This document shows positions 58,718 to 61,241 of a DNA stretch of 64,000 bases, one piece after another. Each line of letters starts with the position of its first letter. The first letter of the stretch is position 1. Both the position numbers and the translations under genes were made by a program. The DNA is taken from the NCBI RefSeq assembly GCF_054482595.1, contig NZ_CM137008.1; one strand, given 5' to 3'. The notes beneath the pieces are model-generated. The model did not search any database. It saw only the letters and a list, made by a program, of their open reading frames with translations, and had not been told where the DNA came from.

Positions 58718-61241
<2,524 letters not shown>

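Follow-up and report, generated by a model that had tools for sequence, protein, structure and literature searches.

A one-base deletion, apparently private to one strain, splits the GGDEF domain of the diguanylate cyclase gene dgcQ in an Escherichia coli chromosome segment

The stretch of DNA analyzed here (64,000 nt, hereafter referred to as the window) is a segment of an Escherichia coli chromosome, with a lambdoid prophage located beside a tRNA-Ser gene at about 4.2–42.8 kb. The prophage is followed by yodB, zinT, msrQP, hiuH, hprRS, hchA, a porin gene, drpB, yedJ, dcm, vsr, yedA, yedI, yodC, dgcQ, yedP, yodD, dsrB, rcsA and fliR. The prophage itself (4200–42850) is inserted between mtfA and yodB, an interval not known to hold a prophage in K-12, and its cargo includes a four-tRNA cluster (18019–18325), sok/hokD, DicF (8623–8674) and an IS009 RNA (42602–42800). 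The chromosomal DsrA (61421–61507) and RseX (52976–53065) are both present and intact.

The dgcQ (yedQ) locus begins with a GTG codon at 58718 and ends with a stop codon at 60411 (Table 1). It lies between yodC and the convergent yedP, the conserved chromosomal site of DgcQ/YedQ orthologues, and the gene order yedI-yodC-dgcQ-yedP-yodD-dsrB-rcsA-fliR is that found in K-12, Santai, YZLc23-1 and XH990. The original prediction had named the gene dgcQ, and this neighborhood, the level of identity to an annotated dgcQ and the CHASE7 plus GGDEF architecture all agree with that assignment. The N-terminal CHASE7 domain (PF17151 match) is flanked by two hydrophobic segments, TM1 at approximately aa 24–42 and TM2 at approximately aa 357–380, both of which are retained in the N-terminal product. 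The locus, its neighbors and the arrangement of CHASE7, two transmembrane segments and GGDEF are thus the same as for intact E. coli DgcQ (YedQ, b1956; named “cellulose biosynthesis regulator diguanylate cyclase DgcQ” in RefSeq). However, codon 441 is one base short in the window; this splits the GGDEF domain and puts the active site out of frame, so that no complete GGDEF domain with a GGEEF motif is found in the sensor's own frame. The locus is a disrupted copy of dgcQ rather than a working member of this orthologue group.

Table 1. Coordinates of the dgcQ locus and its parts in the window, and of deletions in other dgcQ loci
Feature	Position	Strand	Details
dgcQ (yedQ), whole locus, disrupted	58718..60411	+	1694 nt; 99.8% identity to annotated dgcQ of strain YZLc23-1
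N-terminal reading frame	58718..60103	+	461 aa (441 native + 20 out-of-frame residues); GTG start, TAA stop
CHASE7 periplasmic sensor domain, intact	58838..59398	+	aa 41–227; PF17151, E = 3.6e-94, full profile 1–187
GGDEF domain, split by the frameshift	59909..60387	+	aa 398–557 in intact numbering (Pfam)
Lesion	60038..60039	+	AA where intact genes have AAA; TTTT (60034–60037) just before; from alignments
Out-of-frame codons and premature stop	60041..60103	+	Twenty codons, then TAA at 60101–60103; from the reading frame
Downstream native-frame ORF	60079..60411	+	110 aa, GTG at residue 455; RALD 60118–60129, GGEEF 60145–60159
Other dgcQ deletions	L003:3922; L015:3337; L016 and L014:3341		Also protein P0016

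Positions 60034–60042 of the window read TTTTAAGCG, whereas every intact dgcQ compared reads TTTTAAAGCG at this site, one A being absent from the A3 run of the window. The comparators at the lesion were the genes from YZLc23-1, XH990, Santai and K-12, together with the public-assembly loci L003–L005 and L014–L015; a further locus, L016, reads TTTCAAAGCG and has the A3 run as well. Over a longer stretch, the intact genes contain CATTTTAAAGCG and the window contains CATTTTAAGCG. The same one-base gap was obtained in alignments with YZLc23-1 (the closest intact allele), Santai, K-12, XH990 and six further public-assembly loci. The deletion falls in codon 441, where Lys AAA is changed to AAG, and all the downstream sequence is one base out of frame. 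A single-base frameshift within the GGDEF domain had been proposed in the original prediction, and it is borne out both by the alignment with intact dgcQ and by the split of the domain in Pfam searches. The proposed length of 1694 bp, one short of a multiple of three, was also recovered on measurement (1694 nt, against 1695 nt and 564 aa for intact orthologues). Two details required correction: the frame switch had been placed at about 60041–60043, but the lesion in the A run lies 2–5 bases upstream, and the upstream frame had been thought to end after ...VIRR, whereas it runs through 20 out-of-frame codons (60041–60100) before reaching its stop. As in a frameshift pseudogene, the length difference is not a multiple of three, and a premature stop deprives the product of the RxxD and GGEEF motifs.

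In Pfam searches, the intact protein matches the GGDEF profile over positions 1–161, whereas the 461-aa N-terminal product matches positions 1–46 of 161 only, retaining the first 44 or so residues of the domain, and the downstream ORF matches positions 59–161. The GGDEF domain of DgcQ aligns along its full length with solved cyclases, including PleD; from this alignment and the residue roles in PleD, we take Asp436 to be the metal-binding aspartate and Asn444 and Asp453 to be guanine contacts. The RALD sequence (residues 468–471) constitutes the RxxD inhibitory site and GGEEF (residues 477–481) the active site. Everything after Lys441 is missing from the 461-aa product and, because this loss includes Asn444, Asp453, RxxD and GGEEF, the product is expected to lack cyclase activity and to be unable to make c-di-GMP. 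The earlier statement that the strain would be without this cyclase if the lesion were real still holds, RxxD and GGEEF being absent from the sole membrane-anchored product.

A 70-mer across the lesion site found matches in 5324 of the 5426 complete E. coli genomes, none of them gap-free; among the best matches listed, all span 71 bases in the record. The 25-mer bearing the deletion had no exact counterpart among 100,044 species-representative genomes or in the JGI metagenomes, and the corresponding intact 26-mer, used as a positive control, was present in five Escherichia species representatives. At the protein level, the exact sequences of the N-terminal product, in three start-codon variants, were absent from a collection of 15 billion proteins, and a search with the junction peptide yielded no protein with a matching junction. 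The exact 110-aa downstream ORF does occur in public collections, but every contig retrieved bears a different upstream lesion, and these contigs therefore do not corroborate the deletion in the window. The difference in dgcQ is a direct one, seen against thousands of orthologues, and not a statistical pattern. The deletion appears to be private to this strain, of which these searches turned up no second assembly.

The sequence around the lesion otherwise looks to be in good order. Mapping of 72 reference genes onto the window showed 70 to be intact, with one further entry corresponding to a partial reference feature at the window edge, and the only broken genes in the window are dgcQ and the prophage integrase. 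The latter, a tyrosine integrase gene beside the tRNA-Ser gene (4225–5275, - strand), has a length of 1051 nt, which is not a multiple of three, and contains internal stops. Its frameshift is also annotated in the independent genome CUVET21-1780, so it is inherited, and the prophage may, on this evidence, be unable to excise. Indels were listed against Santai, CUVET21-1780, K-12 and XH990. Four single-base length differences besides that in dgcQ were traced, at 61800, at 63846, in the A8 run at 52975 and, as G5/C5, at 26324/26341, and all of them are common to other genomes; positions 3024 and 20759, which also differ from CUVET21-1780, lie outside these four. A generally error-prone assembly was ruled out by these indel lists and by the 72-gene mapping.

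Restoring the A gives a DgcQ translation with 100% identity to WP_242813358.1; at the nucleotide level, the gene departs from that allele at three positions, all of them synonymous. Relative to K-12 DgcQ, 20 of the 564 residues of the repaired protein are changed, the 95 nucleotide differences between the two genes resulting in only these 20 amino-acid changes. No further decay, in the form of extra lesions or an excess of amino-acid changes, was found in dgcQ besides the deletion. Furthermore, the 4.7 kb from 59284 to 64000 are identical to strain XH990 apart from the missing base. Given this otherwise undamaged background, the lesion must therefore be either very young or not real. Upstream of 58472, XH990 is more than 1% divergent from the window, and this change from divergence to identity points to a recombination junction in or just before dgcQ (58472–59283). 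The region is a recombination mosaic, 100% identical to XH990-like genomes downstream of 59284, and among complete E. coli genomes none exceeds 99.3% identity over 25-kb stretches of it. The allele of dgcQ is of a minority type, with at least 99% identity in only 48 of 5363 genomes and 90–95% identity in 4609; it is 94.3% identical to the K-12 gene, the flanking yodC, yedI, dcm, yedJ and rcsA genes being 98–99.7% identical.

Pseudogenes of dgcQ are already known from Shigella flexneri 2457T, with a stop at codon 56, and from enteroaggregative E. coli, with a stop at codon 312 (PMC11327459, citing Povolotsky and Hengge 2016). Like the lesion in the window, if that is genuine, these are natural inactivating point lesions, and they follow a known pattern of decay of c-di-GMP genes in some E. 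coli and Shigella lineages. Among public assemblies, L004 and L005 carry the dgcQ lesion Q397*, and four different one-base deletions were identified in E. coli/Shigella-type assemblies (L003, L015, L014/L016 and P0016), all within the stretch equivalent to positions 60000–60029 of the window. In window-equivalent numbering, the deleted bases are 60000, 60001, one of the T5 run at 60004–60008, and a base at about 60029. The L003 and L014–L016 loci encode a 461-aa product with the same premature stop as that in the window, and each of these four products is found on 4–13 contigs from both NCBI and Logan, with ENA contigs as well for three of the products; the lesions are therefore inherited or reproducible. 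These alleles resemble that of the window in having lost one base early in the GGDEF domain, but the deleted bases differ, and the deletion in the window has been seen only once. The P0016 protein represents a further deletion in the same stretch.

When the window is included, at least five different deletions fall within about 40 nt, and the same 461-aa product is encoded by five of the six loci that were read, namely the window, L003 and L014–L016. It could be supposed that the start of the GGDEF domain of dgcQ has repeatedly and independently lost single bases in E. coli and Shigella lineages, the window being one more case, perhaps through selection that switches off the cyclase yet keeps the periplasmic bile-salt-binding module for a cyclase-independent role, but we consider this reading highly unlikely. 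The clustering results in part from the way in which the loci were found, since the 461-aa product used as a lead arises only from deletions in a 175-nt stretch. There may nevertheless be a minor hotspot, mutational or selective, in this part of the gene.

We consider that the lesion probably corresponds to a genuine, very recent and strain-private loss-of-function mutation of dgcQ that is present in the cells themselves. The clean assembly, the shortness of the A3 run and the natural one-nucleotide dgcQ deletions in other lineages count in favor of this reading, whereas the deletion being a singleton, as an assembly error would also look, and the lack of any independent sign of relaxed selection count against it. 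The other reading to be taken seriously is that of a sequencing or assembly error, in which dgcQ is intact in the strain itself, with AAA at this site, and the consensus lost a base. An error of this kind would be consistent with the presence of the deletion in none of the other 5324 genomes or other collections searched, with its position at the junction of two short homopolymers (T4A3), and with the match of the gene and the 4.7 kb around it to intact genomes save for one base. In addition, some dgcQ fragments in public assemblies, such as P0018 and P0019, contain multiple frameshifts and look like the products of error. However, 70 of the 72 mapped genes are intact, the four other length differences traced are all shared with other genomes, and natural dgcQ frameshifts of this kind are common enough to be present in several lineages. 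Moreover, an A3 run is too short for a typical site of homopolymer error, and a consensus indel in such a 3-base run would be unusual on any current sequencing platform. Overall, a consensus error appears rather unlikely, without being far-fetched.

A split gene might still be functional, if an internal restart were to generate an active soluble GGDEF fragment or if the two fragments were to reconstitute the enzyme. Internal restarts giving active soluble GGDEF fragments have been reported for S. flexneri dgcQ, dgcE and dgcN, and diguanylate cyclase pseudogenes of S. flexneri with nonsense mutations still raise c-di-GMP levels on expression (PMC11327459). In the window, the downstream 110-aa ORF with RxxD and GGEEF survives. 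However, the nonsense mutations in the S. flexneri and enteroaggregative dgcQ genes lie upstream of the GGDEF domain, with a Met within a few codons, such that the whole domain is kept and the expressed gene raised c-di-GMP (PMC11327459), whereas the lesion in the window is an intradomain frameshift and has no restart codon close by. A TAA at 60037–60039, which arises through the deletion, blocks the native frame, and no canonical start codon (ATG, GTG or TTG) occurs after this stop before the GTG at 60079, which is residue 455. A product restarted at this codon would begin 57 residues into the GGDEF domain, and the fragment, which corresponds to profile positions 59–161, is without the Asp436 strand, Asn444 and Asp453, whose roles we assume from those in PleD. 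In addition, a simple consensus scan revealed no sigma-70-like promoter site inside dgcQ. With residue 455 as its earliest canonical start and no good ribosome-binding site, the 3′ part of the gene is not expected to give rise to an active soluble cyclase. An internal restart in the manner of Shigella was rejected in view of the position of this first start codon and the location of the lesion inside the domain, and residual function of the split gene by any of these routes is very improbable indeed.

Programmed recoding, through a −1 ribosomal frameshift or transcriptional slippage restoring full-length DgcQ at a regulated level, is barely conceivable. The site is rich in T and A residues (T TTT AAG), and a −1 shift at AAG would return translation precisely to the native frame. 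Nevertheless, conservation would be expected of a recoding site, and it is lacking: the in-frame AAA is found in all 5324 other genomes, and the intact 26-mer is that present in the five Escherichia species representatives. No heptamer of the X XXY YYZ type occurs between 60038 and 60100, the interval in which rescue would be possible, and shifting at the TTT codon before AAG would bring TAA into frame. Transcriptional slippage requires runs far longer than tracts of the T4 or A3 type. Programmed frameshifting was thus rejected on the basis of non-conservation and the absence of a slippery heptamer, and a phase-variable contingency locus was rejected in view of the runs, only T4 and A3 (A2 in the window), against the 7 or more repeat units typical of such loci. 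The absence both of a canonical start before the GTG at 60079 and of a slippery heptamer makes rescue by restart or recoding very unlikely.

If the lesion is a genuine recent mutation, as we favor, replication slippage is the presumed cause and would have removed one A from the short T4A3 tract in codon 441. Translation would then proceed for 20 codons out of frame and stop at 60101–60103, yielding a 461-aa membrane protein that would retain both transmembrane segments and the periplasmic CHASE7/ligand-binding region but would have no cyclase activity. Published work suggests that the input of DgcQ to c-di-GMP signaling would be lost, that is, bile-salt-responsive c-di-GMP synthesis, the activation of cellulose and biofilm formation, and the damping of swimming. 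The periplasmic domain of Salmonella YedQ binds taurocholate and taurodeoxycholate and raises c-di-GMP, and the EHEC domain binds the same ligands (PMC9637222). In a commensal E. coli, deletion of dgcQ resulted in less c-di-GMP and less mature biofilm, and its overexpression reduced swimming (PMC12367115).

A real deletion would leave the strain without one of roughly a dozen diguanylate cyclases, namely that linked to cellulose activation, to a brake on motility and, in Salmonella and EHEC, to bile-salt sensing, and biofilm and motility behavior in the gut could shift. It would be relevant to any c-di-GMP or biofilm work on this strain, and annotators should then mark the locus as a pseudogene; if an assembly error is responsible, the matter is only one of correcting the record. 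The natural inactivation of dgcQ and other c-di-GMP genes has already been documented, and the allele in the window is either a private, ordinary case of this known event or a one-base assembly error, involving no new mechanism.

Several other sequence differences were observed elsewhere in the window. A hairpin 3′ of a phage capsid gene (26324, 26341) has G5...C5 arms, compared with G6...C6 in CUVET21-1780, a paired change; the G5/C5 form is common to other genomes, 61 of which match an 86-nt stretch at 99% or more. In drpB, an in-frame 21-nt tandem duplication (GGCAATGGCGCGTTACATCTG) is present at 53394–53414 relative to K-12 and XH990, and strain Santai has instead a 29-nt shortfall at this place, with a split annotation. 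The OmpC-like porin gene (51476–52663, - strand), located between hchA and rseX, is intact; it displays many in-frame indels in short variable stretches relative to Santai and has about 86% identity to the XH990 copy, and its product looks like a fast-evolving surface protein.
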